Assembly (NCBI GenBank): GCA_963779925.1
Contig: CAVZZS010000010.1
Span: 612 to 64,611 of the forward strand
DNA length: 64,000 bases
Direction of reading: 5' to 3'
Origin: an uncultured Nanoarchaeota archaeon
GTDB taxonomy: Archaea > Nanobdellota > Nanobdellia > Pacearchaeales > GW2011-AR1
Shown here: positions 6,211-62,231 of the stretch, one piece after another
Numbering within the stretch: position 1 is the first letter of the stretch
Layout: the number at the start of each line of letters is the position of its first letter
Made by a program: the position numbers and the translations under genes
The notes under the pieces: generated by a model
Told to the model about the DNA's origin: nothing
Database searches by the model: none
What the model saw: the letters and a program-made list of their open reading frames with translations, nothing else

Positions 6211-6954
6211 TTATTTTGTCGCATATCCGCCAAGAATTGCAATATCATATGTGCCTAATGGAACCGGGGTTCCGCCCCCGCCTACTGCAGCGGATTCAGA
6301 AGAATAAAATCTCCAAGAGCCTCTAGCTTGAACAAAGAAATTATCCAGGAATTTTAATGTAACTGCTGCTCCCGCTTGAAAATCAGAACCGGCTGAAATA
6401 GGCAAATCAGCATTGCTGTTTCCAGAACCAGTCCATATGGTATCGCCTGCAAAGACTTCCAAATCTAATGGTCCTATTCTTGGAAGATGGTATGTTAAAT
6501 CTGCTGTAAAAAAATATTCTGGATTGTCTGCGGAAACTCCGGGATCTCCTTGAGTGTTGCCCGAGTATGTTTCATAAAAAGGCTGGTAAGCCTTGACATA
6601 ATTTGGTGATTCAGTCATAGCCCATGAAAATAAAACATCAGCTCCAAATCCGCTATCTCTATTTATGAATTCTGCATATATTTGAGGCATAGTGTCCAAT
6701 AAAGGCGTGTTACCAGGATCTGTTGTAGTAGCTCCCCAATCACTTGATGCAGGGGGGTTTCCAGCAACGCTGCCGGTTTCATAGCCTATACCCGCCCCGA
6801 ATCTGAATTCTATATTGGGTGCCGGACGAACATAATCTGGAAAGGTTTCTTTAGCCTGTTCAACCCAATCTTCTTGGGCAATCGCAGGAATTGCAACAGC
6901 AGCCGCTAATGTTCCTGCAACAATCAGAGGCGCTATTCTTCTTAATAAACCCAT
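6211..6954 (-). CDS. secreted protein with outer-membrane-like beta-barrel character
   Basis: Ala/Leu-rich Sec signal ending AIAQE. Repeated amphipathic alternating strands: IEFRFGAGIGYE, ADVLFSWAM, FFTADLTYHL, LDLEVFAG, AAVTLKF, FFVQARGSWRFY, YDIAILGGYAT. Visibly GC-richer. Confidence 0.55.
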   Translation of the reverse strand: MGLLRRIAPLIVAGTLAAAVAIPAIAQEDWVEQAKETFPDYVRPAPNIEFRFGAGIGYETGSVAGNPPASSDWGATTTDPGNTPLLDTMPQIYAEFINRDSGFGADVLFSWAMTESPNYVKAYQPFYETYSGNTQGDPGVSADNPEYFFTADLTYHLPRIGPLDLEVFAGDTIWTGSGNSNADLPISAGSDFQAGAAVTLKFLDNFFVQARGSWRFYSSESAAVGGGGTPVPLGTYDIAILGGYATK

Positions 6955-7909: not shown

Positions 7910-8251
7910 ATGAAGTATGAAATTGAAGAGCGAAAAGAAAAAGAGAAATACGGATTTATTGGGATGAATATTTTTGCAGCAAGAGCTCACGGAATTAATT
8001 GGCCCAAGAAACACGGACAGCATGTGATCAGAATTTACAAGAAAGTTCCAAAGAGCGTGAGGCTTCATACGATCCGCCATGAGGAATGCGAGCAGTATTT
8101 CATGAAGAATTTCCATTATTCCTACCATGATGCCCATCAGCTTGCCCTGAAATTTGAAAAATATGAGAAGCCTTTTCCAAAAAAGAATATTAAGAGAGAA
8201 CTTGAAAAAATCGGTTTGATTACAAGTAAAATAAAGGCAAAGAAAAAATGA
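7910..8251 (+). CDS. hypothetical basic protein
   Basis: 113 aa ORF whose stop overlaps the next start (ATGA). Confidence 0.45.
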   Translation: MKYEIEERKEKEKYGFIGMNIFAARAHGINWPKKHGQHVIRIYKKVPKSVRLHTIRHEECEQYFMKNFHYSYHDAHQLALKFEKYEKPFPKKNIKRELEKIGLITSKIKAKKK

Positions 8252-8703
8252 GTTATCCCCCTTATCCTAAGAAAAAACGAAGCGGAATGTGGATTATAGT
8301 TTTATTGGTTGTAGTAGGGGTTATTATTTATGCAAACAGCAAGGGGATTATAAATCTCGGCTCTCTGAATTTTGGAAATTTCAGCATGTCAGGAAACCAG
8401 AGTGGCACAGCATGCATACAGAAAGTTAATTCATGCGGCAGCATCATAAACCAGAAATATGGATCTAATGTGAATGTGTTAAACAGCACAATAGCGCAAA
8501 ATGCCAACGATGCAAATCAGTTTTTGGCAACATGGAAAAGTTCTTCAGAATCGGCAAGTATTGCAACTTACAATGTTTCTTCATATCCCATCACTTTGGT
8601 AGCAACGAGATTTGACAATACAGATGGGACAAAAACGCCTTATGTATTTATCTGCAAATCTGATGGAAATCTGGAAGAGAAAACAAATTCAGGTCTCTGC
8701 TGA
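8248..8703 (+). CDS. single-pass membrane protein with an extracellular domain
   Basis: Short basic N-terminus, one TM (WIIVLLVVVGVIIYA), and a Cys-containing ectodomain of about 110 aa. Confidence 0.5.
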   Translation: MSYPPYPKKKRSGMWIIVLLVVVGVIIYANSKGIINLGSLNFGNFSMSGNQSGTACIQKVNSCGSIINQKYGSNVNVLNSTIAQNANDANQFLATWKSSSESASIATYNVSSYPITLVATRFDNTDGTKTPYVFICKSDGNLEEKTNSGLC

Positions 8704-9537
8704 TTTTTTTGAGGTTAAGCCATTCGCAATTTTTATCTTACTCTCTATTTTGAATAATTTTTGCCGTATCCTTTCGCCTGTAATTCCGTATTCCTCGCCA
8801 AGGCTTTCATTAGTTCGGGGATAAGGAAAGCCGTTCAATCCATATTTTTTGTATAATATTTCTTTTTCTTCTGGCGTTAAATTCGCTTTTTTCAGGCTCT
8901 TTTGCAAAAATTGTTGATCATGTTCACTGTTCTCGCGTGTTTCCTGCTGCTGTTGAGGTCGATTATCAACTGCACGGGCTCCCCGTTCTTCTTCTCCATC
9001 ATCATAAGTAGAATCTATAGAGATAGGATCTGAAAATTGAAGAAGTTCTTCTACACTATCAACAGGCAAAGAAGAAATTTCTGCCAATTGCTCTATTGTT
9101 GGTTTTCTGCCATGTCTCTTCACATAATTTTCAGATTCTGAATTTAATCTGTCTGATTTTATTGCTTGATTAACCGGCAATTTAATAGTTCTGCTCTTAG
9201 ATATTATCGCATTTAGAATGGATTGTCTAATCCACCAGATTGCATATGCTCTAAAGTTTCGATTCTCTTTATTGGGATCATAGCGATCTATGCATTTCAT
9301 CAGTCCAATTCGGCCTTCCTGAATCAGATCTCCAAATTCCAGACTTCGCCTGTGTTTAAGATATCCCGTATAGTGTCCGGCAATAGCAGTTACTAAAGGG
9401 AGGTGAGTTTCAATTAATTTATCTTTAAGAGATTTATCTCTTGTATCTAGATATTCTCTGAATAATTCGTCAAAGTCCCAGCTATTATTCCACATATCCT
9501 TGCCATCTATATATCTTAAAAAAATATCTTTTGCCAT
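8689..9537 (-). CDS. bacterial-type sigma-70 family RNA polymerase sigma factor
   Basis: Region 2: DLIQEGRIGLMKCIDRYDP and FRAYAIWWIRQSILNAI. Region 3.0: SRTIKLPVNQ. Region 4: LTPEEKEILYKKYGL and SLGEEYGITGERIRQ. Confidence 0.85.
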   Translation of the reverse strand: MAKDIFLRYIDGKDMWNNSWDFDELFREYLDTRDKSLKDKLIETHLPLVTAIAGHYTGYLKHRRSLEFGDLIQEGRIGLMKCIDRYDPNKENRNFRAYAIWWIRQSILNAIISKSRTIKLPVNQAIKSDRLNSESENYVKRHGRKPTIEQLAEISSLPVDSVEELLQFSDPISIDSTYDDGEEERGARAVDNRPQQQQETRENSEHDQQFLQKSLKKANLTPEEKEILYKKYGLNGFPYPRTNESLGEEYGITGERIRQKLFKIESKIKIANGLTSKKSAET

Positions 9538-9584
9538 AAGTCAAAAAAATTTGTTTTGCTTAAAAGAGTATCTACTGAGAAAGA

Positions 9585-10886
9585 TTACTTTTGCTTAACC
9601 GGACTCTTTATCTCCTTTTGCCCGCCCATATAAGGCTGAAGAACGGTTGGAATTTTTATGCTTCCGTCAGCCATCTGATTATTTTCCATCACCGCAATCA
9701 GCGCTCTTGGAGAGGCAAGAACAGTATTATTGAGAGTATGGGCAAAATATCTCTGGCCTTTTCCTTCTATTTTAATATTGAGCCTCCTTGCCTGAGCATC
9801 GGTGAGATTGCTGCAGCTCCCTACTTCGAAATATTTCTTCTGCCTTGGGGACCATGCTTCAACATCGCAGCTCTTTGCCTTTAAGTCCGCCAGATCACCC
9901 GAGCATATTTCCAAAACTCTTAATGGGACATTTAATTCTTTAAAGACTTCAACGGTATAATTTTTCATCTTGTCATATAATTTGTAAGAATCTTCAGGCT
10001 CGCAGATTACAATCATTTCCTGCTTCTCAAACTGATGCAGCCTGTAAAAGCCTTTTTCTTCAATGCCATGGGAGCCGACTTCCTTTCTGAAGCAAGGAGA
10101 ATAGCTTGTCAGTTTAAGGGGAAGCTCTTTTGAGAGAAGTGTTTTGTCAATGAATCTTCCTATCATGGAATGCTCTGATGTTCCGATAAGATAGAGATCT
10201 TCGCCTTCAATTTTGTACATCATGTTGTCCATTTCCTTGAAGCTCATGACTCCTTCAACGACTTTTCTTCTTATCATGAATGGAGGTATTACATAGGTGA
10301 ATCCCTGCTTTATCATGTAATCTCTTGCAAATGCCAGCATTGATGAATGGAGGCGTGCAAGATCTCCCAGCAGGTAATAGAACCCGTTTCCGGATGTTTC
10401 CCTTGCAGAGTCAAAATCAACGCCGTTTAATTTCTCCGCGAGTTCAGCATGATTCAATATTTCATATTTTGGAACAGGAGGATTTCCTTTTGGAATCCTT
10501 TCTATTTCAACATTTTCAGAATCGTCTTTTCCTATTGGCACGGATTCATGGATTATGTTAGGAATCTGCTTCAATAATTGGTCTCTCTTTTCTTCAAGGG
10601 TCTTTGTTTTTTTCTCGCTGTTCGAGATTTTATCCGGAAGGTCTTTTGCTTCTTTGATCAGTTCCTTTGCTTTTTTTTCATTCTTGGCCTTTTTTGCCTG
10701 GTTGATATTTTCAGAAATCTCATTCCTCTGCTTTCTCAGCTTGTCGCCATTCTGCTTTTCCTTCCTCCACTTGTTGTCTAGTTCAAGAACTTGGTCGACA
10801 ACAGGCAGCTTGTCATGCTGGAACTTTTTCTTGATATTTGCCTTGACAATCTCCGGATTTTCCCTCAGAAGCTTGATGTCAATCAT
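9585..10886 (-). CDS. serS: seryl-tRNA synthetase
   Basis: N-terminal coiled-coil arm and class II core (FYRLHQFEKQEM, TSEHSMIGRF, GSCSNLTDAQARRL). Confidence 0.95.
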   Translation of the reverse strand: MIDIKLLRENPEIVKANIKKKFQHDKLPVVDQVLELDNKWRKEKQNGDKLRKQRNEISENINQAKKAKNEKKAKELIKEAKDLPDKISNSEKKTKTLEEKRDQLLKQIPNIIHESVPIGKDDSENVEIERIPKGNPPVPKYEILNHAELAEKLNGVDFDSARETSGNGFYYLLGDLARLHSSMLAFARDYMIKQGFTYVIPPFMIRRKVVEGVMSFKEMDNMMYKIEGEDLYLIGTSEHSMIGRFIDKTLLSKELPLKLTSYSPCFRKEVGSHGIEEKGFYRLHQFEKQEMIVICEPEDSYKLYDKMKNYTVEVFKELNVPLRVLEICSGDLADLKAKSCDVEAWSPRQKKYFEVGSCSNLTDAQARRLNIKIEGKGQRYFAHTLNNTVLASPRALIAVMENNQMADGSIKIPTVLQPYMGGQKEIKSPVKQK

Positions 10887-12738: not shown

Positions 12739-14606
12739 TTAATTCAAATTCTTATTTTTGTTCTTCTTTCTTACTCTAATAATTATTATTGCCAAAACCA
12801 ATATAACAAATGCTATAATTCCGATGATTCCTGTTGGTGATGTTAAAGCACCAATTGCTGCACCTGTTATCGGAGCAGTTGTAGTCGTTCCATTCACAGG
12901 AGTCTGAGTAGATGTAGTGTTTGCTATAGGAGAAGATATGTTAGTTATTGTTGTGTTTGTGTTAGTTGTATTAGCATTACTTGTAGGAGGGACATAACTT
13001 GCTCCTCCGCCTCCACCGCCTGCACTTGTACTTGTTCCGGAAATAGTTGAAGCAGGAACAGTTGGAAGATAAGTCATGAATTCAGTAAAATGCATTGTAC
13101 TAATTATCGTATCTGTTCCATTATCATAATAACAAATTCCAGATGTTTTAGCGCAAGTTTCCAAATCTGTTGTTGTATTTGCAGATATTTGTGTAAAAGT
13201 TAATCCCCCATCATTTGAATATGCTATATGCTTTCCTGTTACTCCTGGAATGGTTATATTTACCGGTTGACTGAAATTTAAATTATTTCCACCAACATCA
13301 ATAATTTCACCAAGTCCATTAACAAATCCATTAGGATAATAATCTCCAGGAACATTTGAAGTAGCTGCTGGTGCTCCAACATTTAATACTTGTGGAGCAT
13401 TTAATGTTCCATCCCATGTAGAATTTCCTGTAATATTTGTTCCAGAAGGAATTACAACTTGAATATTATTTAAATCATTTGAGGTTAAAATTATATTTGC
13501 TGGAACTGTAACATTTAATCTTCCTGAGTCATTTCCAGTCATAAAAGATGTCAAATTCAAGTAGGAAGTATCAGTGTCTGGAACAATATTTGCTTGAGAA
13601 AGGATAGTATATACTGCTTGTACTGATTCACTATTTACTTCTGAAACTTCATTCGTACCATCATTACCAGGAGCTGAATCATACCAGCCACCAATTATAC
13701 CCTTATAATTTTGATTACTTGTAAGCCATAATTGTCCATTTATTGCATCTTTAAAATCTCCAGCATCCATTAGTGCCATTATAGCATAAGCTGTATCTTG
13801 AACATATCCATTAGCATCACTCCAAGAACCATTCATCTGTTGAGATACAATTAAAGCATCTTTTGCGCTTGAATTTCCTGCTTCAACCAAACCAACTAAT
13901 CCAATAATGTATGTAGGATCAGATACATTTGTAATAATTAAAGGAGAGTTAGTATTAATAGTATTTATCAAGCTATTTGCCCAAGGAGAATTACCTGCCA
14001 TTTTAGCATCATCTATATAATTATACAAATCCCAGACAATTAATCCTTCATTGCTTGTTCCTCTATAAACTTTATTTGCTGTGAGCAAATCTGAACCAGA
14101 ACTATATGCATTCATAACTTTGTTCATCAAGAGGTTTGCTTCGGTTGTATAAGAATTAATCCTGCTAATATTCCCTAAATCATAAAGAAATTTTACATTA
14201 ACAGAATTAATGTTATTGCTAGTGGGATCACTATTGGGGTCAACCATTATCGTTGGAAGTTTATTAGTGTACATATTAAGCAGATAGTTTCCAGTCTTTT
14301 CTGCAGCCGTAAGATATGATATATTCCCAGTTATTTTATATGAATTTAACAAACTTTCAGCAGTTATTCCAGCTATATTCATATAAGTTGTTGAAGTTGG
14401 ACTAGTTGCATTTGTAATAGTCCAATCCCATGAACCATTTGCATTTTGCAAATTGACTAATCTATTAGAAGCGTTTATAATTGCAGTTTTTGCATCGGTA
14501 TATTGGCTAGTATTCAGATTTGTTTGTGCACTAACAACTCCTAGAAAGCCGATAAGAATTAAAGCAAATAGAGAGAGAGAGTTAAAAGATTAAATCTTTT
14601 ATTCAT
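12739..14606 (-). CDS. large surface protein with alpha/alpha-toroid (prenyltransferase/terpene-cyclase-like) repeats; its ATG is out of frame because of a (CT)6 tract
   Basis: The track ORF 12739..14451 starts at TTG without a signal peptide. The same frame stays open up to the ATG at 14606. Removing one CT unit gives MNKRFNLLTLSLFALILIGFLGVVSAQT. Repeats of NGSW..D type. Tail APITGA-x11-TM-RVRKKNKNK. Confidence 0.65.
14570..14581 (-). repeat. (CT)6 dinucleotide tract ((AG)6 on the plus strand) inside signal-peptide codons
   Basis: Plus strand reads agagagagagag at 14570..14581, starting 25 nt downstream of the ATG at 14606 on the minus strand. Confidence 0.9.
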
Positions 14607-14643
14607 GAAAAATCTAAAAGAACAGCGCTTTTAAATCTTTTTA

Positions 14644-14940
14644 TCAATGTGTTGAATTAGATTCCAAGTCTCCTAATTCATAGCTTCTAAGAACTTCATG
14701 ATACCATTTTCCATTCTGGCTTACGGCCTGATACTCCGCAGTAACTTCTTTTCCATTGGAGACATATTTCACTTCTATCATAAATTGCCCTGTTAGTCTT
14801 ATGCTCGCCCATTCCATAGATTTCAGGTCTAGTTCCATTGATTCGGGAATGAATGGTTGCGGGACAGGAATCTTTGGTCCTGCAGACACGGAAGTCAGCA
14901 GTGTAGCTGAAAGAAGAAGAATCCTGGCTAAATTTTTCAT
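14644..14940 (-). CDS. small secreted protein
   Basis: 98 aa with Ala/Leu-type signal MKNLARILLLSATLLTSVSAGP, followed by a beta-rich mature part. Confidence 0.55.
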   Translation of the reverse strand: MKNLARILLLSATLLTSVSAGPKIPVPQPFIPESMELDLKSMEWASIRLTGQFMIEVKYVSNGKEVTAEYQAVSQNGKWYHEVLRSYELGDLESNSTH

Positions 14941-14990
14941 CCAGTATAGATTCAGAATTCGTTTAAAAACATTGTTGCAAACTCTGGAAT

Positions 14991-15308
14991 TTATCTCAGC
15001 ATCAGCACTACTTGGACAATGCCCAATAAAGAAAGAACTATTGTAAGGATTAAAAGCAGTTTATTCGTCTTTTTTTGCCCCGCCTGATTAAGAAACTGTA
15101 TTCCCAAAGAAGTTATTCTGTATGAAACTGCGCTTGACAGGTTTGGCGTCCCTCTTGGAACTTTTTCTATCAATTTATTTCTCTCAAGGGTAGTTATAGT
15201 ATCCACATCAAAGCCGTCCACGCTCGTTAAAGTGCCGCTGCCTGTAACCATATCCTTAGGGAATATTCTCTCCAAATGCTCCAGTAATTTCAATGTAGAC
15301 TTTTCCAT
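14991..15308 (-). CDS. winged-helix-like protein with a C-terminal TM anchor
   Basis: 105 aa with a hydrophobic C-terminus LLLILTIVLSLLGIVQVVLML. Confidence 0.45.
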   Translation of the reverse strand: MEKSTLKLLEHLERIFPKDMVTGSGTLTSVDGFDVDTITTLERNKLIEKVPRGTPNLSSAVSYRITSLGIQFLNQAGQKKTNKLLLILTIVLSLLGIVQVVLMLR

Positions 15309-15728: not shown

Positions 15729-16343
15729 ATGGAAAAAAATAATTCTACCAAAGAAATAGAAGAAAAAATAATTGAAGTCGGGCTTAGAATAGCCAGAAGG
15801 GGAGAAGGCGCTTTGATCGTTCTCGGAAAAGCAAATTTCAAGCCTCTTGTCGAGCAGAAAGTTCCTCCGTTCAAAATCGTTGATAATCTGAAATTATTGG
15901 AATCCCTTGCATTGATTGATGGCGCTGTTATAATCAATCATGAAGGCATAATGGAGAATTATGGGGTCATGATTGAATCAAGAAAGACAATGCAGGGTTA
16001 TGGGACACGCCATAGTGCAGGATTGAATGCTTCTCTGATCAAAGGCACAACTGCTTTTGTAATCTCAGAAGAAGATAAAAAAATAAGAGTCTTCAAAGAG
16101 GGGAAGGTTGTGCTTCAGATAGATGCCCTTGAAAAAGGCATAGAAAAGAGGACCCCTGAAATCGGCGGGATTCTTGCAAGTATAGGTGCAGGGACAATCG
16201 GGACTCTCGGAGTTGGAATGCTCATTCCGAATATAGGATTGACTTTGATTCCAGGCGTGATAATATTCGGTTCGACATATTTTCTGCTCAAGAAATTAAA
16301 TGATGCAAACCAGAACAAGAAATTATGGTCCTGGTTCTTTTAA
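15729..16343 (+). CDS. DisA_N/DAC-domain protein (putative diadenylate cyclase) with a C-terminal membrane region
   Basis: GEGALIVLGK, LIDGAVIIN, GTRHSAGLNAS and AFVISEEDKKIRVFKEGK follow the DAC pattern (GALIV, DGA, RHR, SEE). The C-terminus has two hydrophobic segments. Confidence 0.6.
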   Translation: MEKNNSTKEIEEKIIEVGLRIARRGEGALIVLGKANFKPLVEQKVPPFKIVDNLKLLESLALIDGAVIINHEGIMENYGVMIESRKTMQGYGTRHSAGLNASLIKGTTAFVISEEDKKIRVFKEGKVVLQIDALEKGIEKRTPEIGGILASIGAGTIGTLGVGMLIPNIGLTLIPGVIIFGSTYFLLKKLNDANQNKKLWSWFF

Positions 16344-22296: not shown

Positions 22297-22997
22297 CAGA
22301 CGTTTTAACATTAGGAAAAATAACTTCTCTTGCATTGGTCAATTCTGTTAATCCTTGCCAGATCGCCATGCTTATTCTAGTACTGGTCGCAATCTTAACG
22401 CAAAATCCGGGAAAAAGAAAAAAGGTTTTATTATCTGGTTTTGCATTTATAGCTGCAGTATATATTGGATATTTATTCTATGGAATAGTCTTGGTTCAGT
22501 TATTCCAGGCATTTACAGAATTCTTAAGGCAAGGCTCAGTTTATGTAAATTATATCTTTGCGGCTCTTTCTATGCTCGTTGGAGGATTGCAGATTAAAGA
22601 TTTCTTCTTTTACAAAAGGGGAAGTTTTGCTACAGAAATGCCGCTTTCCTTCCGCCCAAAAGCAAAAAGGATTATCAACAAGATTACATCTCCAATCGGG
22701 GCATTCATTGTAGGATTTGTTATAACGCTTTTCCTGGGACCTTGCACGATGGCGCCATTATTGATTGCGACAGAATCTTTGTCGCAATTAGGGATACTTG
22801 GAGCGCTTCCATGGCTGTTGTATTTCAATTTCATAATAGTGCTTCCACTGATAGTGATTACGTTAATAATTTATGCAGGATTTACGACAGCAGAAAGTGT
22901 CTCCCAATGGAAAGAGAAAAATGTTAGAATCCTTCATTTAATTGCCGGAATTTTATTGTTCGGTATAGGGTTGGCTATCTTGTTGGGTTGGCTGTAA
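22293..22997 (+). CDS. ccdA: CcdA/DsbD-family thiol:disulfide electron-transfer membrane protein
   Basis: Six TM segments with the paired motifs NPCQIAML and GPCTMAPLL. The start overlaps the thioredoxin stop. Confidence 0.8.
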   Translation: MTDVLTLGKITSLALVNSVNPCQIAMLILVLVAILTQNPGKRKKVLLSGFAFIAAVYIGYLFYGIVLVQLFQAFTEFLRQGSVYVNYIFAALSMLVGGLQIKDFFFYKRGSFATEMPLSFRPKAKRIINKITSPIGAFIVGFVITLFLGPCTMAPLLIATESLSQLGILGALPWLLYFNFIIVLPLIVITLIIYAGFTTAESVSQWKEKNVRILHLIAGILLFGIGLAILLGWL

Positions 22998-23345
22998 ACC
23001 TTCAACTAATGCATCTAGATCTTTTAAACCAAAAGGTTTTCTCAAGTAGCCGCTTGCTCCAGCTTCGTCTAAGGCTTCCCTTGAAATTTCTCTGCCGCTC
23101 ATAAGATATAACGGTATATTCTTGCCAAAATCTTTTCTTATTATTTTTATAGCTTCAAGACCCTTGATAGGGGATCTCATATCGTTATCCGTAAGAACCA
23201 TATCATATTCAGCCTGTTTAATCTTCTCTAAAAGTTCCTCTGCATTCTGGCATGATTCTACTTCAAGGCCTTTCTGTTCAAGATAAGAACTAAGAAAAGA
23301 CCTGATTAATTCTTCATCATCGATAATAATAATTCTCTTTGGCAT
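22953..23345 (-). CDS. stand-alone response-regulator receiver domain (CheY-like)
   Basis: IIIIDDEE, phospho-acceptor context MVLTDNDM, conserved S/T in YLMSGR, and the K in LRKPF. Confidence 0.8.
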   Translation of the reverse strand: MPKRIIIIDDEELIRSFLSSYLEQKGLEVESCQNAEELLEKIKQAEYDMVLTDNDMRSPIKGLEAIKIIRKDFGKNIPLYLMSGREISREALDEAGASGYLRKPFGLKDLDALVEGLQPTQQDSQPYTEQ

Positions 23346-25668: not shown

Positions 25669-26715
25669 ATGGATTATAGAAGAGCCGAGATTTTAAGCGG
25701 AGGAGCAGGAAAAGGTTTCTGTTATACTGGATATATAAAAGCAAAAGAAGATTTGGGAATAACTGATAGCGATCTTGGAGAAAAAAGTTTAAAATTTGCG
25801 GCTTCAATTGGGTCATATTATGCAGCAGGTCTTTCTTTAGGTGTAAAGGCAGGCGAAATAGAGAGATTTACAGAAAATAATAAAAAATTAATGGGCAATC
25901 TGTTCAAGCCCAGGCTTGACAGGATTATGTCTGCATTGGCAGGCTTAGGAAATCTCGGTAATCCTCGTTCTATAGAAAACTGCAATGGCGATGATCCCGA
26001 TTCTCTTCCTGATACGGGGTTATGTGATATAAGAAATCTTGAAAGGATCGCAAGGGTATTTACTGGCGATAAAAAGCTAAAAGATGTGAAAGACTTGAAT
26101 ATTATAGTAACAGACAGGCAGACATTCAAGCCAATTGTGATGAATTATAAGACATTTCCAGATGTTTATGTCTATGAAGCAATCATGGCTAGTTCCGCTT
26201 TTCTTCCAGCTTTCTCTCCAGTAATTATAAAAAATGAAGGGTTAAAAACAATCGTAATGGATGGCGGATTATCAAATAATGTCCCGTTGGATTTGGCATT
26301 ATTAGAAGAATCAGTCAGAGAAATTGTTTGTGTTGATTTATCATATGCCTCGGCTGTTAGAAAGATTCCTGTAACTGGAAATTTTATCTGGGACTATTCT
26401 CTTGAATCATTTTCTGCAGGGGCTCAAAAAACTAGAGGAATATTCGAGGCTCAGAAATTAGATTACGATAAAATCGCAAAAGATAGGATAGTTGAAATGG
26501 AATGTAACGGCAAAAAACAAGTATTATATCTAACCCCAAACATTCATTATACTAGATCATTCAGATCTGATACCGATAATGTAAGAGAGTTATCTGAAAA
26601 AGGATATGAAGAATTCAGAGAAGCATTAAAGGAATTTGAAGAATATAAAAAAGGGAATAAGCCCGCCTTTGGAACATATTCTTGTAGTGACTCTGATTCT
26701 AAAGTTTCTATTTAG
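25669..26715 (+). CDS. patatin-like phospholipase
   Basis: GGAGKG oxyanion motif, AASIGS (GxSxG variant) and MDGGLSNNVPL (catalytic DGG). Confidence 0.7.
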   Translation: MDYRRAEILSGGAGKGFCYTGYIKAKEDLGITDSDLGEKSLKFAASIGSYYAAGLSLGVKAGEIERFTENNKKLMGNLFKPRLDRIMSALAGLGNLGNPRSIENCNGDDPDSLPDTGLCDIRNLERIARVFTGDKKLKDVKDLNIIVTDRQTFKPIVMNYKTFPDVYVYEAIMASSAFLPAFSPVIIKNEGLKTIVMDGGLSNNVPLDLALLEESVREIVCVDLSYASAVRKIPVTGNFIWDYSLESFSAGAQKTRGIFEAQKLDYDKIAKDRIVEMECNGKKQVLYLTPNIHYTRSFRSDTDNVRELSEKGYEEFREALKEFEEYKKGNKPAFGTYSCSDSDSKVSI

Positions 26716-28485: not shown

Positions 28486-29295
28486 ATGAAAGTCTTTTCT
28501 CATTCCAGATTAAGCACTTTTGAGCAGTGCAATCTAAAATACAAATTCAGGTACATAGACAATATTATCCCTGAAATTGAAAAAACGATTGAAGCGCATC
28601 TTGGGAGCATCGTGCACCAGACTTTGGAATGGCTTTATTCGGAAGTGAAGGAAAAAAGGATTCCAACAATTGATGATATGATTGTTTATTTTTCAAAAAG
28701 TTGGATGGAAGAAAATAAAGAAACTTTGATGCAGAATAATAATGATGAGCAGAAGTATTTCAATAAAGGAGTAAAATATTTGCTCGATTATTACAATAGA
28801 TACAAGCCTTTTGAGGACAATACAATTTATGTTGAAAAGGAAATTTCAATAGATTTGGATGAAAAAGGCGAATTCAAAATAAGGGGTTTCATTGATCGGC
28901 TTGCATATAATCTTGCTACAAAAGAATATGAAATTCATGATTACAAAACTTCCAATACAATGCCGCAGGGAGATAAAATCGAAAAGGACAGGCAGCTGGC
29001 GCTTTATTCCATCGCGATAAAAGAGATGTTTGGGCAAGATAAAGAGGTAAGATTAATCTGGCATTATCTTTTCTTCAACAAAAGGATAGAATCGAAGAGG
29101 ACTGATGAACAGCTTCTCCAATTAAAAAAAGATACACTTGAGCTAATAAGGATAATAGAATCAACGACAGAATTTTCTCCTAACAAATCGCATTTATGCA
29201 ATTGGTGCGCATACAAGCCTATCTGTCCTGCATGGAATAATGTAAAAGAATACATGCCAAAATTTGAGAAGCAGAAAAAGCTTGGGGATTTTTAA
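28486..29295 (+). CDS. PD-(D/E)xK nuclease of the RecB/Cas4 type with a four-Cys cluster
   Basis: N-terminal Cys (EQCNLKYKF), FIDRL, EIHDYKT, QLALY, and C-terminal CNWCAYKPIC. Confidence 0.75.
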   Translation: MKVFSHSRLSTFEQCNLKYKFRYIDNIIPEIEKTIEAHLGSIVHQTLEWLYSEVKEKRIPTIDDMIVYFSKSWMEENKETLMQNNNDEQKYFNKGVKYLLDYYNRYKPFEDNTIYVEKEISIDLDEKGEFKIRGFIDRLAYNLATKEYEIHDYKTSNTMPQGDKIEKDRQLALYSIAIKEMFGQDKEVRLIWHYLFFNKRIESKRTDEQLLQLKKDTLELIRIIESTTEFSPNKSHLCNWCAYKPICPAWNNVKEYMPKFEKQKKLGDF

Positions 29296-31839
29296 TTTGC
29301 AACTTCCAATCCAAGTTCATGGACCTTAACCAAATCAGTCACAGTATCGCCTTCTTGAAGCTTTACAATTCTTACGCCTTGTGTCGCTCTTCCCATTACC
29401 CTGATATTCTGCAAGGTAGTTCGTATCACCATTCCTTTTGCAGTGGTTATAATGATATTGTCATTTCCGTTGATGGAAACAGTCGTAACTACCTCTCCAG
29501 TTTTGTCGGAGATTTTCAAATTGATTACTCCTTTTCCGCCTCTTGCGGTTTTTCTGTAATCTTCAACATTTGTTCTTTTTCCGTATCCATTATGTGTTAT
29601 TGTCAAGACTTCCTTTGTCCTTAATATTTCCAAACTGACTACTTCATCATTCTTTTCCATCCTTATTCCGGTAACGCCATAGCTTGCTCTTCCCATTGAA
29701 CGGACATCATTGCTGTTGAACCTGATTGCCTGTCCTTTCTTTGTCGCAAGCAGCACTTCTTCTCCGGATTTGATGATTTGGGCATCAATAAGCACATCAG
29801 AATTATCCAATGGAAGATTAATCGCCCTTATTCCTGAAGCTCTTGGCTTTGAGAAGTTGGACAAGGACATTTTCTTTACAAATCCTTTTCTTGTTACCAA
29901 AAATAAAGAATCGTTAAAATCACTCATTGCGATGATGTTGGTAATTTTCTCGTCCTTGACTTCAATCAGATTAATGAGTGCTTTGCCTTTGCTGTACCTG
30001 TCTGCTTCGGGGATTTCGTATGCTTTCAGGAATAAAACTCTGCCATTCGATGTGAAGAACATCAGATAATCATGAGTGGAGCAGCTTATTATCTGTTTGA
30101 CAAAATCACCTGTAGCCAAATTATTGCCTATGACCCCTTTTCCGCCTCTTCTCTGTTCTTTGTAGGTTCCGATGTCAATTCTCTTGCAGTATCCTTTTTC
30201 TGTAACAGTCACTATAACTTCTTTTTTCTGGACAAGATCCTTTTCGGCAATTTCGCCGATTCTCTTGACAACCTGGGTTTTTCTATCATCGCCATATTTT
30301 TCTTTAAGAGATTTTACGTCCTTGACAATTATCTTAAGAACCTCTTTAATATCCCCAAGGATTTTTTCATATTCCACAATTTTCAATTTCAGGGTTTCAT
30401 GCTCTTCTTTCAACTTATCCTGTTCAAGCGCAGTTAACTGCCTTAATCTTGTTTCAAGAATTGCCTCTGCCTGTCTTTTCGTGAAATTGAATTTCTTGAT
30501 TAAATTTTCAGCGGCTTCTTCTCTGGATTTCTTGATTATGCTTATAATTTCATCCAGATTTTTCAAAGCGACCAAAAGCCCTTCGACAATTTCGAGCCTT
30601 TCTTTTGCTTTCTTTAAATCATAGGCTGTTCTTTTTGTTATAATCTGTTTTCTGTAATTTACAAATTCTTCAAGTATGTGCTTCAAATTCAGGACTCTTG
30701 GCTGCGTTCCGACCAAAGCCAGGAAATTTGCGTTAAAAGAATCCTGCAATCGCGTATATTTGTAAAGGCTATTGCTGATATATTTTGAATTAACTCCTTT
30801 TTTAAGTTCAATGACAATTCTTATTTTTCCCTTGGAAGATTCATCCCTTAAATCAGATACTCCGATTAATTTCTTGTTCTGTATGAGATTAGCAATCTGT
30901 TCTACTAGCGTGGATTTGTTTAGCATATAGGGAATTTCCGTAATGACAATTTTCTCCTTGCCCTTTGATTCTTCGGTTGTTATTTTCCCGCGCAAAATTA
31001 ATCTGCCTTTTCCTGTTCTGTATAAATCTACAATGTCGCCGGAAAGACTTCCTCCGGTCGGGAAATCAGGTCCTGTAACAATCTGGCATAATTCTTCAAT
31101 AGTGATATTTTCATTCTTTACATATTCAACAATTGCATCGCAAATTTCAGTAAGATTATGCGGAGGGATATTTGTGGCCATGCCGACCGCTATTCCAGAT
31201 GCGCCATTGATCATTAAATTAGGAAGTTTGGATGGAAGCAATTCAGGCTCTTTTAAGGAATTGTCAAAATTAGGAATAAATTTAACGGTCTCCTTGTCAA
31301 TATCCTCGATCATTTCATTTGAAATCTGAGCCATTTTTGCTTCGGTGTAACGCATTGCAGCAGCGCGGATCTCCGTCAATGCTTCCAAAGTTACCCTGGC
31401 CAAAAACCAGAGGATAACGCAATGAGAATTTCTGGGCCATTCTTACTAATGCATCATAAACAGCCACATCGCCATGAGGATGATATTTACCAAGAACATC
31501 TCCGACAATTCTTGCGCATTTTTTAGTCTGCTTGTTGGATTGCAGCCCAAGTAAATTCATAGAATATAAAATTCTTCGCTGAACGGGTTTCAATCCATCT
31601 TCGACTGATGGCAAAGCTCTTGCAACAATAACCGACATGGCATAATCAAGGTAGGACTTTTTGACTTCTTCAGAAATTTCAGTATTGATTATGTTTTTGC
31701 TTCCGGAAAGTTTGCCTTGGGAATCCTTTTCTTCTTCGCCTTCATCTTCTTCAACAGATTCTTCATCTTCAAGGCTTTCTTCTATTTCTTCCTGTTCTTC
31801 ATCAGGATTCTCTTCTGTAAAATCTTCATCGTCTGCCAT
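29292..31839 (-). CDS. gyrA: DNA gyrase subunit A, split into two overlapping ORFs by a +1 frame disruption
   Basis: 174 aa ORF (31315..31839): [15 protein letters not shown] ... [10 protein letters not shown]. 703 aa ORF (29292..31403): [15 protein letters not shown] onward, with six beta-pinwheel repeats. Skipping one nt within 31358..31368 gives [12 protein letters not shown]. Confidence 0.9.
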
Positions 31840-32135
31840 TAGATTACCTCCGCTCCTTGTTCATCCAAATATTTCATGAACTGTTCTTCACTTAATTCGT
31901 CTTCTTTGATATTAGTTCCTTTCCATCCGCATTTTTTGCATTCCCATTCTCCCTTGTTCTTCCCTTCTTCTTCGCCTAAAACAACCCCCACTTCATCGCT
32001 TCCGCATTTAGGGCATCTTCTTAATCTGAAGGTCTTTTCTGCTTTCTTCTTTTTTGCAACTCCGTGAGATTTTTCCCAATCTGACTTTGAGTCAAATCCT
32101 TCCCTTATCCAATCTGGCGTCGCAAGCTTTCCCAT
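31839..32135 (-). CDS. zinc-ribbon protein
   Basis: CPKCGS ... CKKCGW. Its stop overlaps the gyrA ATG by 1 nt. Confidence 0.6.
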
Positions 32136-32519
32136 TTAATTTAAGCTCCCTAAAAATTTTTTAATTGCGTGGGAGCAAGGGGGGATTATTTTTAATCCGC
32201 CGATTTCTTCTTTTGAAAAGAAAGCAACACCTGCCCCTTCTCCTATTGATATTTTGTCAATATTGTTAAGCTTAGACAAAAAGATATGATAATTTATGCC
32301 GTCTTTTTCACTGTAAACAAAATCAAATAAGGATTTTATAGGTATTTCAAAACCAATTTCTTCTTTAAGTTCCCTTTCCATTTCATCTTTCATGTTATCA
32401 GATTCAGCTCTTCCTCCGAATAAGCTCCACATGCCTGGAAATTTTTTGTAATCAAGAGTCTTCTTCTGGAGTAAAATCTCTCCATTATCGTTTAATATGA
32501 TTCCCAATACCGCATCCAT
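32136..32519 (-). CDS. NUDIX hydrolase
   Basis: Nudix box GGRAESDNMKDEMERELKEEIGFE. The internal ATG at 32519 lies 1 nt after the gyrB stop and is preferred over the track start at 32582. Confidence 0.8.
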   Translation of the reverse strand: MDAVLGIILNDNGEILLQKKTLDYKKFPGMWSLFGGRAESDNMKDEMERELKEEIGFEIPIKSLFDFVYSEKDGINYHIFLSKLNNIDKISIGEGAGVAFFSKEEIGGLKIIPPCSHAIKKFLGSLN

Positions 32520-32520
32520 G

Positions 32521-34464
<1,944 letters not shown>

Positions 34465-38204: not shown

Positions 38205-38552
38205 CTATTTAAACTTTTCTATATCGACGATAACACTTTTGTTTTTCTTGTTGAGTGGTATCTCAACAAAAGATGAAAAGTTTTCTGAAGGGCAGATATG
38301 GGGCAAAAATGGCTTCACTTTCCTGATTTCTATGATCTTTCCCCCGTCATCAATCCAGATTGCAATGAATGGGAAAAAGACAAACAGCGAATGTATCGCA
38401 AGCCTTACGGGCTTGGGAAATTCAAACAGCAGGATTTTTGCATTCTCCCTTCTTGAGAACATTAGCCCGATGATTCGCCTGAATCCTCTTGCGATATTCG
38501 CTTCTATGGGAATTTTCTTACGCCCAAAATTTAAAATGATTCTCTTTTTCAT
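38205..38552 (-). CDS. DUF192-family protein
   Basis: RGFRRIIGLMF ... IHSLFVFFPFIAIWIDDGGKII matches the DUF192 pattern. Confidence 0.6.
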   Translation of the reverse strand: MKKRIILNFGRKKIPIEANIARGFRRIIGLMFSRRENAKILLFEFPKPVRLAIHSLFVFFPFIAIWIDDGGKIIEIRKVKPFLPHICPSENFSSFVEIPLNKKNKSVIVDIEKFK

Positions 38553-38916
38553 TTGTCCTCTTTTTATACTCTTTATAATATAAATTCACATTTCTCTCGC
38601 AGACAAAGTCATGATGCTTGAATCCGCCGCCGAAGGTTTTTGGAATGTGCATCAGTTCATGCATTATAATTTTAATTTGCTCTTCTTCATCCATTTTGTC
38701 GAATCTTTCTGAAATGAACTCAAGGGCATAATATGCTTCAACGCCGATTGTCTTTTGCAGTATTTTTCCGAGGGCGTGGCATCTCGCGATTGTTCCGCGC
38801 GAAGAGCTCCCATAGCTTCTGAAGCATTTGATCCTTTCAAGTTTTATATGAGGAAACATTATTCTGGAAATCTCTTCCGCTTTTCTTTGCAGCTCCGGCG
38901 CATCTTCGTATCTCAT
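38518..38916 (-). CDS. predicted HExxH zinc metallopeptidase (SprT/COG4900-like)
   Basis: IIMHELMHIPKTFGGGFKHH. Confidence 0.6.
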   Translation of the reverse strand: MRYEDAPELQRKAEEISRIMFPHIKLERIKCFRSYGSSSRGTIARCHALGKILQKTIGVEAYYALEFISERFDKMDEEEQIKIIMHELMHIPKTFGGGFKHHDFVCERNVNLYYKEYKKRTNEKENHFKFWA

Positions 38917-39278
38917 TTCAAGTCAAAATCCCAGAAATTTAATTGTCCTTTTGCAGCAATCGGTTCAATTCTCGCAGGATCATCCAGCACAAATCCAAAA
39001 TCGCCCCACTCCCGAGAGGCCAAATGCAGATTTTTGTCTCTGTTAAATTCTTCATCATTGCCGTATTTTTTAACATCGGTCAATTTCGCTTTGCCAAGGA
39101 TAGAACCCAATGGCAGTTCATTAAATCCAAATCTCTTCATTGCTTCTGTATCAGAATTCTTCGGAGCATGAATAAGAAACTCGCCCCTGAAATTTGTATT
39201 CCACTTTCTCAATTCAATCTTTTTTCGGCCTTGTAAAATCAGCTCTGCAAAGGGTTGTTTTATTGAAAGAGTCTTCAT
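38913..39278 (-). CDS. ASCH-domain protein
   Basis: LSIKQPFAELILQGRKKIELRKW and the overall size are typical of ASCH domains. Confidence 0.7.
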   Translation of the reverse strand: MKTLSIKQPFAELILQGRKKIELRKWNTNFRGEFLIHAPKNSDTEAMKRFGFNELPLGSILGKAKLTDVKKYGNDEEFNRDKNLHLASREWGDFGFVLDDPARIEPIAAKGQLNFWDFDLK

Positions 39279-60126: not shown

Positions 60127-60417
60127 ATGCCTAGCAAAAATAGAAATAAAGTAATTAAGAAGAATGCAAAAAGAATGTGGATTACTGGTTTAATAGTATT
60201 AGCAGTAATTTCTGCAGGTATTACTGTTTACCTTATTTATTCACATAATCATCAACCAACAAACTCAGGGCCAAACCCCGGGCAATTCCGAGGAAATCAT
60301 AGGAATTTTACATTCTGGGGCAATAATTCTACAGGGCAAATGCCAAGATTTAATGGGAATTACACAGGACAACCTCCCAAATTCAATAATAATTATACCG
60401 GAGCAGTACCACAATGA
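60127..60417 (+). CDS. small TM protein with tandem N-x-(S/Y)-T-G-x-x-P-x-F-N repeats
   Basis: One TM, then NNSTGQMPRFN / GNYTGQPPKFN / NNYTGAVPQ. The stop overlaps the ABC ATPase start. Confidence 0.45.
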   Translation: MPSKNRNKVIKKNAKRMWITGLIVLAVISAGITVYLIYSHNHQPTNSGPNPGQFRGNHRNFTFWGNNSTGQMPRFNGNYTGQPPKFNNNYTGAVPQ

Positions 60418-61124
60418 ATTCGGTAATAAGAATGGATGATGTTTGGAAAAGATACCAAATGGGAAAAACTATTGGGCTGACCGTACTTAAAGAAATAGAT
60501 ATCTGCATAAACAAAGGAGAGTTTGTTGCAATTAATGGACCAAGTGGTTCTGGAAAGTCTACAATGGTAAATCTGATTGGAGCTCTTGATAGACCATCCT
60601 GGGGCACAATTTATCTCAATGAAAAGAATATAGCAGAGATGAGCGAATCATCTTTAGCTTTTCTCAGAGGAAAAACAATCGGATTTATTTTCCAGCAGTT
60701 TAACTTAATACATGATTTAACAGCACTTCAAAATGTTATGCTTCCAATGGAAATTGTTAACGTACCAGAAAAAGAAGCAGAAAAAAAAGCAATAGAGCTT
60801 CTTACAAAACTTGGACTTGGAGAGAGGTTAAATCACAAGCCAACAGAATTATCAGGAGGTCAGCAGCAAAGAGTTGCGATTGCAAGAGCTCTCGCAAATG
60901 ATCCGGAAGTTATTCTCGCCGATGAACCTACCGGGAATCTCGACAGCCAAACAGGAGAATTCATAATGAGATTTTTAGAAGACTTAAATGAAAAAAGTGG
61001 TAAGACAATTATACTTGTAACACATGATCTTGATTTAATGCGTCATGCAAAAAAAGTAATACACATAAAAGATGGTCGAATTGAAAAGCAAATTGAAAAT
61101 AAAAAGAGGATAAGGACAAAATGA
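60414..61124 (+). CDS. ABC transporter ATP-binding protein (MacB/LolD/FtsE type)
   Basis: GPSGSGKST, FIFQQFNL, LSGGQQQRVAIARAL, ILADEPTGNLD. Confidence 0.92.
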   Translation: MNSVIRMDDVWKRYQMGKTIGLTVLKEIDICINKGEFVAINGPSGSGKSTMVNLIGALDRPSWGTIYLNEKNIAEMSESSLAFLRGKTIGFIFQQFNLIHDLTALQNVMLPMEIVNVPEKEAEKKAIELLTKLGLGERLNHKPTELSGGQQQRVAIARALANDPEVILADEPTGNLDSQTGEFIMRFLEDLNEKSGKTIILVTHDLDLMRHAKKVIHIKDGRIEKQIENKKRIRTK

Positions 61125-62227
61125 AAAAAATATTCTTCTTGTTTATCTTTATTTCACTAGCATTACTATGCCTAGTTTCTGCGCAGACTTCGACTACAGT
61201 TAATTACACGACTTCAAGTAATCAGGGATTAGTCGTAACCCAGCTTAAATATTCGCCATATCCTGCAAATCCTGGAGAGTATATCGATCTTTGGATTGAA
61301 GCACAAGTAGTCGGAACTATTACCCCTTCAAATGCGACATTTATGTTAAGTCCCCAGTATCCCTTCTCATTGGATTATAGTGATTCGGGAGTAAGAAGTT
61401 TTGGGCAACTAGGTACAACACCAGTCGTTATGCATTTCAAGGTAAAAATTGATCAGAATGCAACTCAAGGAGACAATGAACTGGATTTGTATTATAGCAC
61501 AAGCGGATCAAGTTCTGTTAATAATGTATGGACTTTGCAGCCATTTAATATCTCGGTCGCAAATTCACAAACCGATTTTGATTTAGTAGTTCAGGATTAT
61601 ACATCTTCTGCAACATCAATAGCAATTGCAAATACCGGAGAGAATACTGCAAACTCTTTGATTGTAAGAATACCTACTCAATCAAATTTCAAGGTTTCTG
61701 GAGCTACAGGGCAAATTGTTGGAAATTTAAATTCTGGTGATTATACTATAGCAACTTTTGATTTAACTGCTGCAACAAGAAACAATAATGGAACATTAGC
61801 AATTGAATTGGATTATACTGATGCAATCGGGGTAAGAAGAACAATAATAAAAGATATTTCTCTCTCCAGTTTCTTGTCTAATTCTTCATATCCAATTTCT
61901 GGTCTAGACACACTCGGCAGTGGTTCAGGGAATAATAGCTCTGGAGGAAGTTTTCCAACTGGCTTTCAGGGCGGCAATTTTCCAGGGGGGTACAGAAGGA
62001 CAACTACAAGTATATTTAGCAATGGGTGGTTCTGGGGGGCAGTCGGATCAGTTTTAGTAATGATTGGAGGAGTTTTATTTTTTAGATTCAAAAAGAAAAA
62101 ACATGATCATAAAAATCTGGAACATTCAAAAAAGATTATTGATGATCTTAAAATAAAAAAATCAGAAAAAGAGAATTCTAAAAAGATACCTGACTGGGTA
62201 TTAGAAGAGAGTAATAAGAAGAGATAG
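61121..62227 (+). CDS. exported S-layer-domain-like (COG1361-type) protein with a C-terminal TM
   Basis: Signal peptide, two beta-sandwich-like halves (YSPYPANPGEYIDLWIE ...), and a G-rich linker followed by a TM and K-rich tail. Confidence 0.55.
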   Translation: MKKIFFLFIFISLALLCLVSAQTSTTVNYTTSSNQGLVVTQLKYSPYPANPGEYIDLWIEAQVVGTITPSNATFMLSPQYPFSLDYSDSGVRSFGQLGTTPVVMHFKVKIDQNATQGDNELDLYYSTSGSSSVNNVWTLQPFNISVANSQTDFDLVVQDYTSSATSIAIANTGENTANSLIVRIPTQSNFKVSGATGQIVGNLNSGDYTIATFDLTAATRNNNGTLAIELDYTDAIGVRRTIIKDISLSSFLSNSSYPISGLDTLGSGSGNNSSGGSFPTGFQGGNFPGGYRRTTTSIFSNGWFWGAVGSVLVMIGGVLFFRFKKKKHDHKNLEHSKKIIDDLKIKKSEKENSKKIPDWVLEESNKKR

Positions 62228-62231
62228 TAAA

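Follow-up and report, generated by a model that had tools for sequence, protein, structure and literature searches.

What is a bacterial-type sigma-70 factor doing in an archaeal genome? Sigma factors on the one hand and TBP/TFB on the other are textbook markers of bacterial and archaeal transcription initiation. In a stretch of 64,000 nucleotides (nt) from an uncultured Nanoarchaeota archaeon (contig CAVZZS010000010.1; hereafter the window), an earlier note had pointed to an open reading frame (ORF) at positions 8689-9537 as a complete, undegraded sigma-70 gene among archaeal housekeeping genes. Here we report that it is a native, vertically inherited gene of the sigma-70 family that a Nanoarchaeia (DPANN) lineage maintains under selection. 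Judged by comparison with its orthologs, it evolves roughly tenfold faster than the housekeeping genes around it and exists as deeply divergent alleles, which related genomes apparently exchange at times. Because an archaeal lineage has kept a sigma factor under selection through deep divergence, the question arises whether both initiation systems can mix.

Archaeal sigma factors themselves are already published, and the window gene is a further member of that kind. Their first description is credited to Rinke et al. (2013) in PMC6126073. Castelle et al. (2021; PMC8204110) described sigma-70 genes of DPANN archaea (family fam00359) as 'particularly prevalent in Woesearchaeota', ruled out mis-binning, found no anti-sigma factors, left the mechanism open and asked whether some DPANN have bacterial hosts. 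The remark in the earlier note that such genes had been noticed without a functional explanation agrees with both sources. Our literature searches returned no functional study of an archaeal sigma factor. New here, as far as we know, are the serS linkage, the archaeal promoter, the family-specific N-terminus and the roughly tenfold accelerated, allele-like evolution.

The gene product belongs to the sigma-70 family

The gene under study is the following.

8689..9537, minus strand: sigma-70-family gene, 282 amino acids plus stop, ATG start (ORF, Pfam and NCBIfam models, PDB sequence and fold matches)

The ORF is exactly the one first proposed, every peptide quoted for it is found in the translation, and family models and fold agree on its identity. 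The long ATG start is backed by an N-terminal motif common to the orthologs and by a TATA box 21 nt upstream. The Pfam search that had been suggested as a check placed two of three domains above their cut-offs: Sigma70_r2 (PF04542) scored 63 bits against a cut-off of 24 (residues 41-116), and Sigma70_r4 (PF04545) was marginal at 25.6 against 24.1 (residues 219-264), with a clear HMMER alignment to region 4.2 of RpoD. Sigma70_r3 (PF04539) stayed just below (23.7 versus 25.3 bits, E=5e-5, residues 130-176); the modelled helices 122-169 and the full-length structural alignment agree with a sigma3 domain. The superfamily model TIGR02937 (91.9 bits versus 42.9) was the sole NCBIfam model passed. 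Scores for the RpoD/SigA equivalogs remained far below their cut-offs (RpoD_Cterm, 150 versus 354; PRK05658, 134 versus 555; PRK09210, 128 versus 572), as did those for a cyanobacterial RpoD model (142 bits), RpoS (139 versus 379) and the group 3 models SigBFG (86 versus 234), FliA (74 versus 190) and RpoH (104 versus 323). The remaining family members scored 76-129 bits with the RpoD/SigA equivalog models.

The best PDB sequence matches were RpoD/SigA (95-117 bits), mycobacterial SigB (105) and RpoS (104), and no group 3 or 4 sigma occurred within the 60 best. An AlphaFold2 (AF2) model built from the 16-sequence family alignment reached a mean pLDDT (predicted local distance difference test) of 74, with confident sigma2 (residues 20-115), sigma3 (122-169) and sigma4 (222-271) domains. 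In Foldseek searches of PDB, all 50 best matches were bacterial sigmaA, sigma70, sigmaS or sigmaB chains, with probability 1.0 and 240-260 aligned columns. We conclude that the product is a genuine member of the sigma-70 family, nearest in sequence to groups 1/2 and outside every curated subfamily. In detail, it has group-1/2-like regions 2-4, without region 1.1 or a canonical region 1.2.

Architecture is retained, recognition residues are not

HMMER aligned the protein collinearly to RpoD, query residues 34-265 corresponding to E. coli 372-595. The segments are as follows.

9439..9537, minus strand: N-terminal segment, residues 1-33, family-specific, in the place of bacterial regions 1.1/1.2
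9193..9438, minus strand: sigma2, residues 34-115, regions 2.1-2.4 (Pfam r2, RpoD mapping, pLDDT 85-90)
9031..9192, minus strand: sigma3, residues 116-169, regions 3.0-3.1 (Pfam r3 at 130-176, helices 122-169 in the model)
8884..9030, minus strand: region 3.2 linker ('sigma finger'), residues 170-218, acidic, collinear with RpoD 507-553
8743..8883, minus strand: sigma4, residues 219-265, regions 4.1-4.2 (Pfam r4 at 219-264, RpoD mapping)
8689..8742, minus strand: C-terminal tail, residues 266-282 plus stop, its last 15 nt overlapping the 3' end of the convergent orf151

The N-terminal segment carries the motif R-Y-I-D-G-K-D-M-W, with a predicted beta-hairpin (residues 8-13) followed by a helix FDELFREY in the AF2 secondary structure. 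It is common to the 16 family members, G12 being nearly invariant, and the motif was not found in compact bacterial RpoD-like proteins of similar length. Regions 1.1 (PF03979) and 1.2 (PF00140), which are present in the bacterial relatives found by search, gave no Pfam match; because they are absent, the description of the factor as complete is valid for regions 2-4 only. Inspection of the translation revealed no evident secretion signal at the N-terminus.

The core-binding helix of region 2.2, DLIQEGRIGLM, corresponds to E. coli 403-413, and LIQEG..GL is invariant within the window's clade. For the mapped contact residues we take the roles to be those established by E. coli and Thermus genetics and structures. 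The window allele retains the equivalents of L404-E407, F427, Y430, W433, W434, Q437, E585, R586, R588 and Q589 (F95, Y98, W101, W102 and Q105 being F427, Y430, W433, W434 and Q437), and has G at the R584 equivalent; positions Y430, W433, W434, Q437, R584, E585 and R588 thus read Y, W, W, Q, G, E and R. Across the 16 members, G75, G78, L79 and I103 (G408, G411, L412 and I435) are invariant or nearly so, and F95/Y98 are nearly invariant, the Y430 equivalent being kept in 15. Q406/E407 are retained in the window's clade only, and other members have G-Y or G-F. The W433 position is occupied by W, S, L, H, T, E, P or R and that of W434 by W, Y, H, C or G, and the Q437, R584, E585 and R588 equivalents also differ between orthologs. 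The sigma4 recognition helix ITGERIRQ aligns with E. coli 582-589 (VTRERIRQ); this -35 recognition helix differs even between sister genomes (ITHQRVQQ, ISHEGIRQ, FTGETMRG, VSRQRVDQ and others). The impression of an undegraded factor has to be qualified. The window allele is the most RpoD-like of the family; orthologs from nearly identical genomes share just 30-71% identity, with the W433 equivalent and a number of -35-contact residues lost.

The acidic, Q-rich stretch between regions 3 and 4, earlier taken for an insert, is an ordinary region 3.2: it is collinear with RpoD, and the interval comprises 101 residues (136-236) versus 99 in RpoD (472-570), only two more. Region 3.2 of primary sigmas is acidic (E. 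coli PIGDDEDSHLGDFIED). Residues 170-198 of the linker are disordered in the AF2 model. The linker is the fastest-evolving part of the protein (mean pairwise identity 0.41), with its length kept across the 16 members, D191 invariant and S173 nearly so. As far as the alignments indicate, fold, architecture and linker length are conserved and specificity-determining residues are not.

A five-residue insertion, Y-L-K-H/P-R/S, lies in the region 2.1/2.2 loop (residues 59-63, 9349-9363). It is present in the window and in the orthologous loci L001, L089 and L005, is not found in L003, L088, L006 or bacterial RpoD, and is an allele-class marker.

A native gene with an archaeal-type promoter

The surroundings of the gene are archaeal, as had been noted: aIF2-gamma (TIGR03680, 521 bits versus a cut-off of 514.5), aIF5B (NF003078, 641 versus 468) and archaeal Kae1 (432 versus 375) are encoded in the window, together with S6e and uS10. 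Its position behind serS on the same strand was also given correctly. At 90% identity, the window serS clusters with proteins bearing the name 'Candidatus Nanoarchaeia archaeon', and because of this name we place the host in the DPANN class with the Woesearchaeota- and Pacearchaeota-like orders. Two features lie upstream of sigma.

9585..10886, minus strand: serS, directly upstream of sigma (TIGR00414, 430 bits), with its own conserved TATA box TTTAAATA
9559..9565, minus strand: TATA-like box TTTTAAG, at -28..-22 from the sigma start codon

The composition of the gene is native, having ameliorated to that of the host. Its G+C content is 0.363 (0.370 +/- 0.028 for 56 window genes), that of third codon positions 0.279 (0.332 +/- 0.065 for window genes), and its codon-usage distance 0.196 (0.229 +/- 0.048 for genes of similar size); no G+C step occurs at the gene. 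Among the window ORFs scanned we found no RNA polymerase (RNAP) subunit, anti-sigma factor or integrase.

The box upstream of sigma, TTTTAAAA, is equally spaced in L001, L089, L003, L088, L005, L006 and L090. Seven orthologs have 'TC(C/T)TTTTAAAATAACAAAT' at the same distance, with coding DNA only 50-65% identical. Sixty window genes display a position-locked TATA-like box, T-rich at -28/-27 and A-rich at -24..-22, and TATA-like hexamers are 5.6-fold enriched at -31..-25 upstream of start codons of window genes. This spacing implies what would be an archaeal promoter and mostly leaderless mRNA layout. For sigma it implies its own archaeal-type promoter and a predicted leaderless or near-leaderless mRNA; the serS box is separate and deeply conserved.

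A single near-perfect match to a sigma-70-type promoter, TTGACT-17-TATAAT (11/12), lies at 14453-14481 (plus strand) in the 14452-15308 gap upstream of uS10. We estimate that 20 kb of this composition would hold roughly one such match by chance.

Compared with bacterial group 1/2 factors (RpoD/SigA, RpoS, SigB), which are its best sequence and structure matches, the window sigma is collinear in regions 2.1-4.2 but only 33-40% identical and far from the equivalog cut-offs. It also differs in having no region 1.1, canonical 1.2 or non-conserved region, and in its setting, a cell with archaeal RNAP and TATA-box promoters.

One locus, one family

We compared 13 distinct loci (the window, L001, L003, L005, L006 and L088-L095). 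In all 13, which come from independent assemblies (ENA, JGI, Logan and NCBI), serS is followed immediately by sigma in the same orientation, and this linkage spans serS identities down to 43%. In most loci, a convergent small membrane protein (orf151), a 113-residue ORF and a YlqF-like GTPase follow downstream.

8248..8703, plus strand: orf151, membrane protein with one transmembrane pass, convergent to sigma; downstream border of the divergence island described below

orf151 had no Pfam, PADLOC or PHROG match. We considered it as an anti-sigma factor and discarded the idea: its cytoplasmic part is about 12 residues, it matches no such family and it does not co-vary with sigma. An additional ORF of 58-60 residues between the orf151 and orf113 homologues (L005 2959-3138, L089 4917-5093, L090 2393-2575) is missing from the window (~8248), L001 and L006, and yields a second identity trough beside that of sigma. 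In L001, a 157-kb ENA contig, serS is called as two pieces of 34 and 317 residues (8654-9952); tblastn aligns through at 89% identity, and the split probably reflects faulty assembly or a frameshift error in that contig.

In a phmmer-type search, five close relatives came up at 45-56% identity, ahead of a sharp fall to bacterial RpoDs at 33-40%. An exhaustive profile search over 1.84 billion representatives brought in further, short proteins (267-304 residues) as a second tier, with the N-terminal motif, 'HYDPxKxGRNF' in region 2.3 and 'RKIRxANG' at the C-terminus, giving a family of about a dozen 50%-identity clusters. Among the matches listed, further profile searches added P0121 and P0233 only, and a scan of GTDB genomes gave nothing above 39% identity; the pattern IQEG..GL used there also matches every bacterial RpoD. 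Metagenome contigs searched with a degenerate DNA pattern specific to the family yielded L006 again and three chance matches only. The window family is marked by the N-terminal G-K-D-x-W motif and serS anchoring. Like the published DPANN genes, the window gene is of the sigma-70 class, lies on a contig with archaeal markers for which mis-binning is excluded, and is without an anti-sigma factor, here among the window ORFs scanned.

One relative (L091; GCA_035506395.1, DATJPO010000039.1) comes from a metagenome-assembled genome labelled 'Candidatus Omnitrophota bacterium'. Its contig encodes an archaeal/eukaryotic-type uS10 (146 bits versus 75 for the bacterial model), and its gene order, thymidylate kinase / S10 / serS-sigma, matches the archaeal loci. 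Because of the archaeal-type uS10 and the Nanoarchaeia-like synteny we regard this contig as mis-binned, and its sigma (P0237) was ruled out as a bacterial sister group. It is the only observation that could speak for an assembly chimera or bacterial contamination at 8.7-9.5 kb, to which we give next to no credence: both junctions recur in the independent assemblies, G+C content and codon usage are uniform, and the single bacterial label belongs to an archaeal contig. The check for chimerism that had been proposed thus found none, with the serS-sigma junction in 13 distinct loci from independent assemblies and a native composition.

In a neighbour-joining tree, the 16 archaeal-family sequences and 24 bacterial group-1-like sigmas were split in 100 of 100 bootstraps. 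This clean split and the fixed locus are what one acquisition from Bacteria and subsequent vertical inheritance would give. The proposed search for a donor clade named none, because the bacterial matches form a flat continuum of 125-148 bits over Thermotogota, Bacillota, Armatimonadota, Nitrospirota and the candidate phyla radiation. A viral vector or donor was rejected: neither GenBank phages (tblastn) nor IMG/VR contained a relative above 38% identity.

Fast evolution, purifying selection and probable allele exchange

Between the window and its closest relatives, protein identity is 89-94% for serS, 85-88% for the GTPase, 83-87% for cyclophilin and 45-56% for sigma. Sliding nucleotide identity is 85-95% in the flanks and falls sharply to a trough of 46-68% that coincides exactly with the sigma coding sequence. 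For L001/L005, orf151 is 93% identical and sigma 58%. Sigma is among the fastest-evolving genes of its neighbourhood, a pattern unexpected for a sigma factor; bacterial primary sigmas evolve slowly, whereas the window sigma evolves about 10 times faster than its neighbours.

Nonsynonymous (dN) and synonymous (dS) divergence were estimated by the Nei-Gojobori method (NG86) on the least saturated pairs, dS being saturated for most pairs. For sigma, dN/dS was 0.11 in L003/L088 (dN 0.079, dS 0.69) and 0.21 in L001/L089 (dN 0.209, dS 1.00); flanking values were 0.02-0.04 for serS and 0.03-0.06 for the GTPase. In L089/L003, sigma reached a dN of 0.436, compared with 0.026 in serS and 0.056 in the GTPase, and overall the amino-acid replacement rate (dN) of sigma was 8-17 times that of the flanks. 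All 13 sigma orthologs are intact (267-295 residues). Because of these dN/dS values and the intact orthologs, we regard sigma as a gene under purifying selection and not as a remnant. Region-wise dN/dS was 0.05-0.6, with region 3.2 most and the C-terminal tail least variable; it never exceeded 1, with no sign of positive selection at the level of regions.

The divergence of sigma does not follow that of serS. Within serS-defined groups, serS and sigma are 88-96% and 31-71% identical in group A, 84-89% and 33-39% in group B, and 83% and 30% in group C; between groups, the ranges are 43-58% for serS and 27-49% for sigma. Thus sigma is no more similar within serS groups than between them. The sigma of L094 (group B) is 48-49% identical to group-A alleles versus 33-37% to its own group, and the sigma tree puts P0004 apart from the alleles of its nearest genomic relatives. 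We next compared fourfold-degenerate sites within identical amino acids. Divergence at these sites was in excess in sigma for L001/L005 (0.68 versus 0.24 in the downstream flank, Fisher p=1e-7) and for L089/L006 (0.60 versus 0.37, p=0.007), and there was no sigma excess for L089/L003 (0.47 versus 0.39-0.46). Because the allele tree conflicts with the flanks and L001/L005 show excess synonymous divergence, allele exchange is suggested. We read the dominant signal as probably a weak but real purifying selection on most residues, while recombination between related genomes now and then swaps an entire allele.

The last ~57 nt of sigma (8689-8745) are near-identical in the otherwise divergent L001, L089, L003 and L088 (dS 0-0.08). 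This 3' end may mark the limit of a recombined tract, or may hold a terminator or regulatory element common to the alleles.

Possible roles of the archaeal sigma factor

Any model of function is constrained by a native serS-anchored gene, an archaeal promoter, the retention of all polymerase-touching regions, a rate of evolution among the fastest of the neighbourhood and deep allele classes. Taken together, these constraints suggest an accessory or interaction role and fit neither 'junk' nor 'housekeeping'. Our preferred reading, held tentatively and at somewhat less than an even chance, is that the protein would be an accessory, non-essential archaeal transcription factor that binds AT-rich promoters through sigma2 and sigma4, probably docked on the clamp coiled-coil of the archaeal RNAP. 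It would act inside the archaeal cell, on a small and shifting set of targets. Without region 1.1, the autoinhibitory region of sigma-70, it would bind AT-rich promoter DNA through sigma2 and the sigma4 helix-turn-helix, the F427/Y430 equivalents being kept for contact of sigma2 with a -10-type element. The clamp coiled-coil is the universal docking site of sigma2, TFE and Spt5/NusG, and because all domains and the linker length are retained, we consider docking on the archaeal RNAP the somewhat likelier case. The docked factor would modulate TBP/TFB-dependent initiation and would not replace TBP/TFB. An accessory role with shifting specificity is suggested because genomes that share 83-96% identity in serS share only 30-71% in sigma, and because recognition residues vary. 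TFB/TFIIB, a proposed distant sigma homologue (Burton & Burton 2014, PMC4581349) and functional analogue, is likewise a helix-turn-helix initiation factor with a linker reaching the polymerase active site; it is the factor with which sigma would need to cooperate or compete in an archaeal cell. It differs in having no detectable sequence similarity to the window sigma and in acting with TBP on promoters with TATA and TFB recognition elements, the type seen in the window.

Several points weigh against an accessory factor on the archaeal RNAP. Docking is read from the retained architecture, and expression from the promoter motif. We know of no archaeal counterpart of the bacterial beta-flap-tip helix that holds sigma4. 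An RNAP partner should fix the interface, yet Q406/E407 change outside the window's clade, and all sigma regions evolve fast, which is unexpected for a conserved RNAP interface. Sigma-70-type -35/-10 sites are not enriched in the window (73 versus 68.3 +/- 8.4 in shuffles), and because there is no such excess and the genes bear archaeal TATA boxes, no sigma regulon is visible. Moreover, hypervariability with allele exchange would be more typical of conflict or host-interaction genes.

It is possible, though we think it unlikely, that sigma engages an RNAP it did not evolve with, either the archaeal enzyme, in a hybrid pathway competing or cooperating with TFB, or that of a bacterial host, hijacked as by phages; in both cases the allele classes would stand for different promoter or host specificities. 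Such engagement is compatible with the data because core-binding architecture and linker length are under purifying selection while specificity residues diversify at a fixed locus. An RNAP-independent DNA-binding regulator, which would repress or activate a few genes via sigma4 and sigma2, is an unlikely alternative of similar standing. Sigma-70 truncated of region 1.1 binds promoter DNA alone, and the absence of regions 1.1 and 1.2, the change of region 2.4/4.2 DNA-contact residues between orthologs, as in small-regulon regulators, and the lack of a sigma-type promoter excess would all suit it. Every ortholog, however, keeps the whole sigma2/sigma3/linker/sigma4 layout, needless for a plain helix-turn-helix regulator, and the core-binding helix LIQEG..GL does not vary within the window's clade; the promoter is conserved despite different recognition helices, with no sign of allele-specific autoregulation. 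A host-directed effector, delivered by an episymbiont into a bacterial partner to redirect its RNAP as phage sigmas do, appears quite unlikely. Every region required for work with a bacterial core is present, and host range or an arms race would account for the fast evolution and the allele classes; the hypervariability, the conflict between alleles and flanks and the excess synonymous divergence in L001/L005 agree with this. Against the phage sigma family phrog_351, compact, sigma-70-like and fast-evolving as it is itself, the window sigma scores 158 bits, equal to the best bacterial model; adhesin-like proteins (HYR, Big_3, Bact_surface_Ig-like) abound at the loci, which even encode OMP_b-brl proteins, a patatin-like phospholipase is encoded in the window, and the question of bacterial hosts has been raised for some DPANN (Castelle et al. 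2021). Yet the window sigma, unlike phage sigmas, occupies a fixed housekeeping locus with no viral context. It carries no signal peptide or known export tag, and the core-binding Q406/E407 are not retained outside the window's clade; no bacterial host is known for the lineage, no delivery machinery was identified in the window, and region-wise dN/dS stays below 1.

That sigma belongs to a conflict or defence module, as a sigma-like decoy or an MzaA-like defence sigma against viruses or mobile elements, we judge very unlikely. The island of divergence between conserved flanks would fit, and there is a generic match to the C-terminal sigma domain of MzaA from the MZA anti-phage system (PADLOC 92 bits, NCBIfam 132 bits). 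This match is limited to the common domain (132 bits versus a cut-off of 800; profile positions 432-655 of 683), and MzaA has about 700 residues with a large N-terminal part that the window sigma does not have. No Mza partner genes lie nearby, the neighbouring genes have no PADLOC match, no viral relative exceeds 38% identity, and the locus is fixed and housekeeping (serS, a ribosome-biogenesis GTPase, cyclophilin) instead of a mobile island. A neutral remnant of horizontal transfer drifting toward loss, one of the possibilities raised at the outset, is highly improbable. Very fast protein evolution would agree with it, and we know of no need of archaeal RNAP for sigma. Against drift stand the intact reading frames of 13 of 13 orthologs, which diverge by up to 70% in an AT-rich genome, the dN/dS of 0.11-0.21, the conserved archaeal promoter, and the same locus kept across lineages whose serS is only 43-58% identical. 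Should sigma prove to act on the archaeal or on a bacterial polymerase, no earlier cross-domain initiation factor would precede it, and it could reveal the hosts and lifestyle of Woesearchaeota-like DPANN archaea.

Other features of the window and related contigs

Many window genes are typically bacterial, namely a DisA-type diadenylate cyclase domain, a stand-alone response-regulator receiver, the patatin-like phospholipase, gyrB/gyrA and a MacB/FtsX-type ABC system (15729-16343, 22953-23345, 25669-26715, 29292-34419 and 60414-63512); they fit the 'hybrid' gene content described for DPANN. gyrA is split over two overlapping frames at 29292-31839 (minus strand), 31315-31839 encoding GyrA residues 1-110 and 29292-31403 the remainder; the 89-nt overlap could reflect a frameshift, a sequencing error or a truly split gene. 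A DUF192 gene, a 'putative phage metallopeptidase' (PF18894) and an ASCH-domain gene cluster at 38205-39278 (minus strand) and may be what is left of a mobile element or virus. The ORF at 6211-6954 (minus strand) encodes a signal-peptide protein without family match, which is 43-44% identical to its orthologs and thus matches sigma in its rate of evolution. On related archaeal contigs, Pfam OMP_b-brl, a bacterial outer-membrane beta-barrel family unexpected in an archaeon, matched at L003 18379-19506 and L005 11970-12521.

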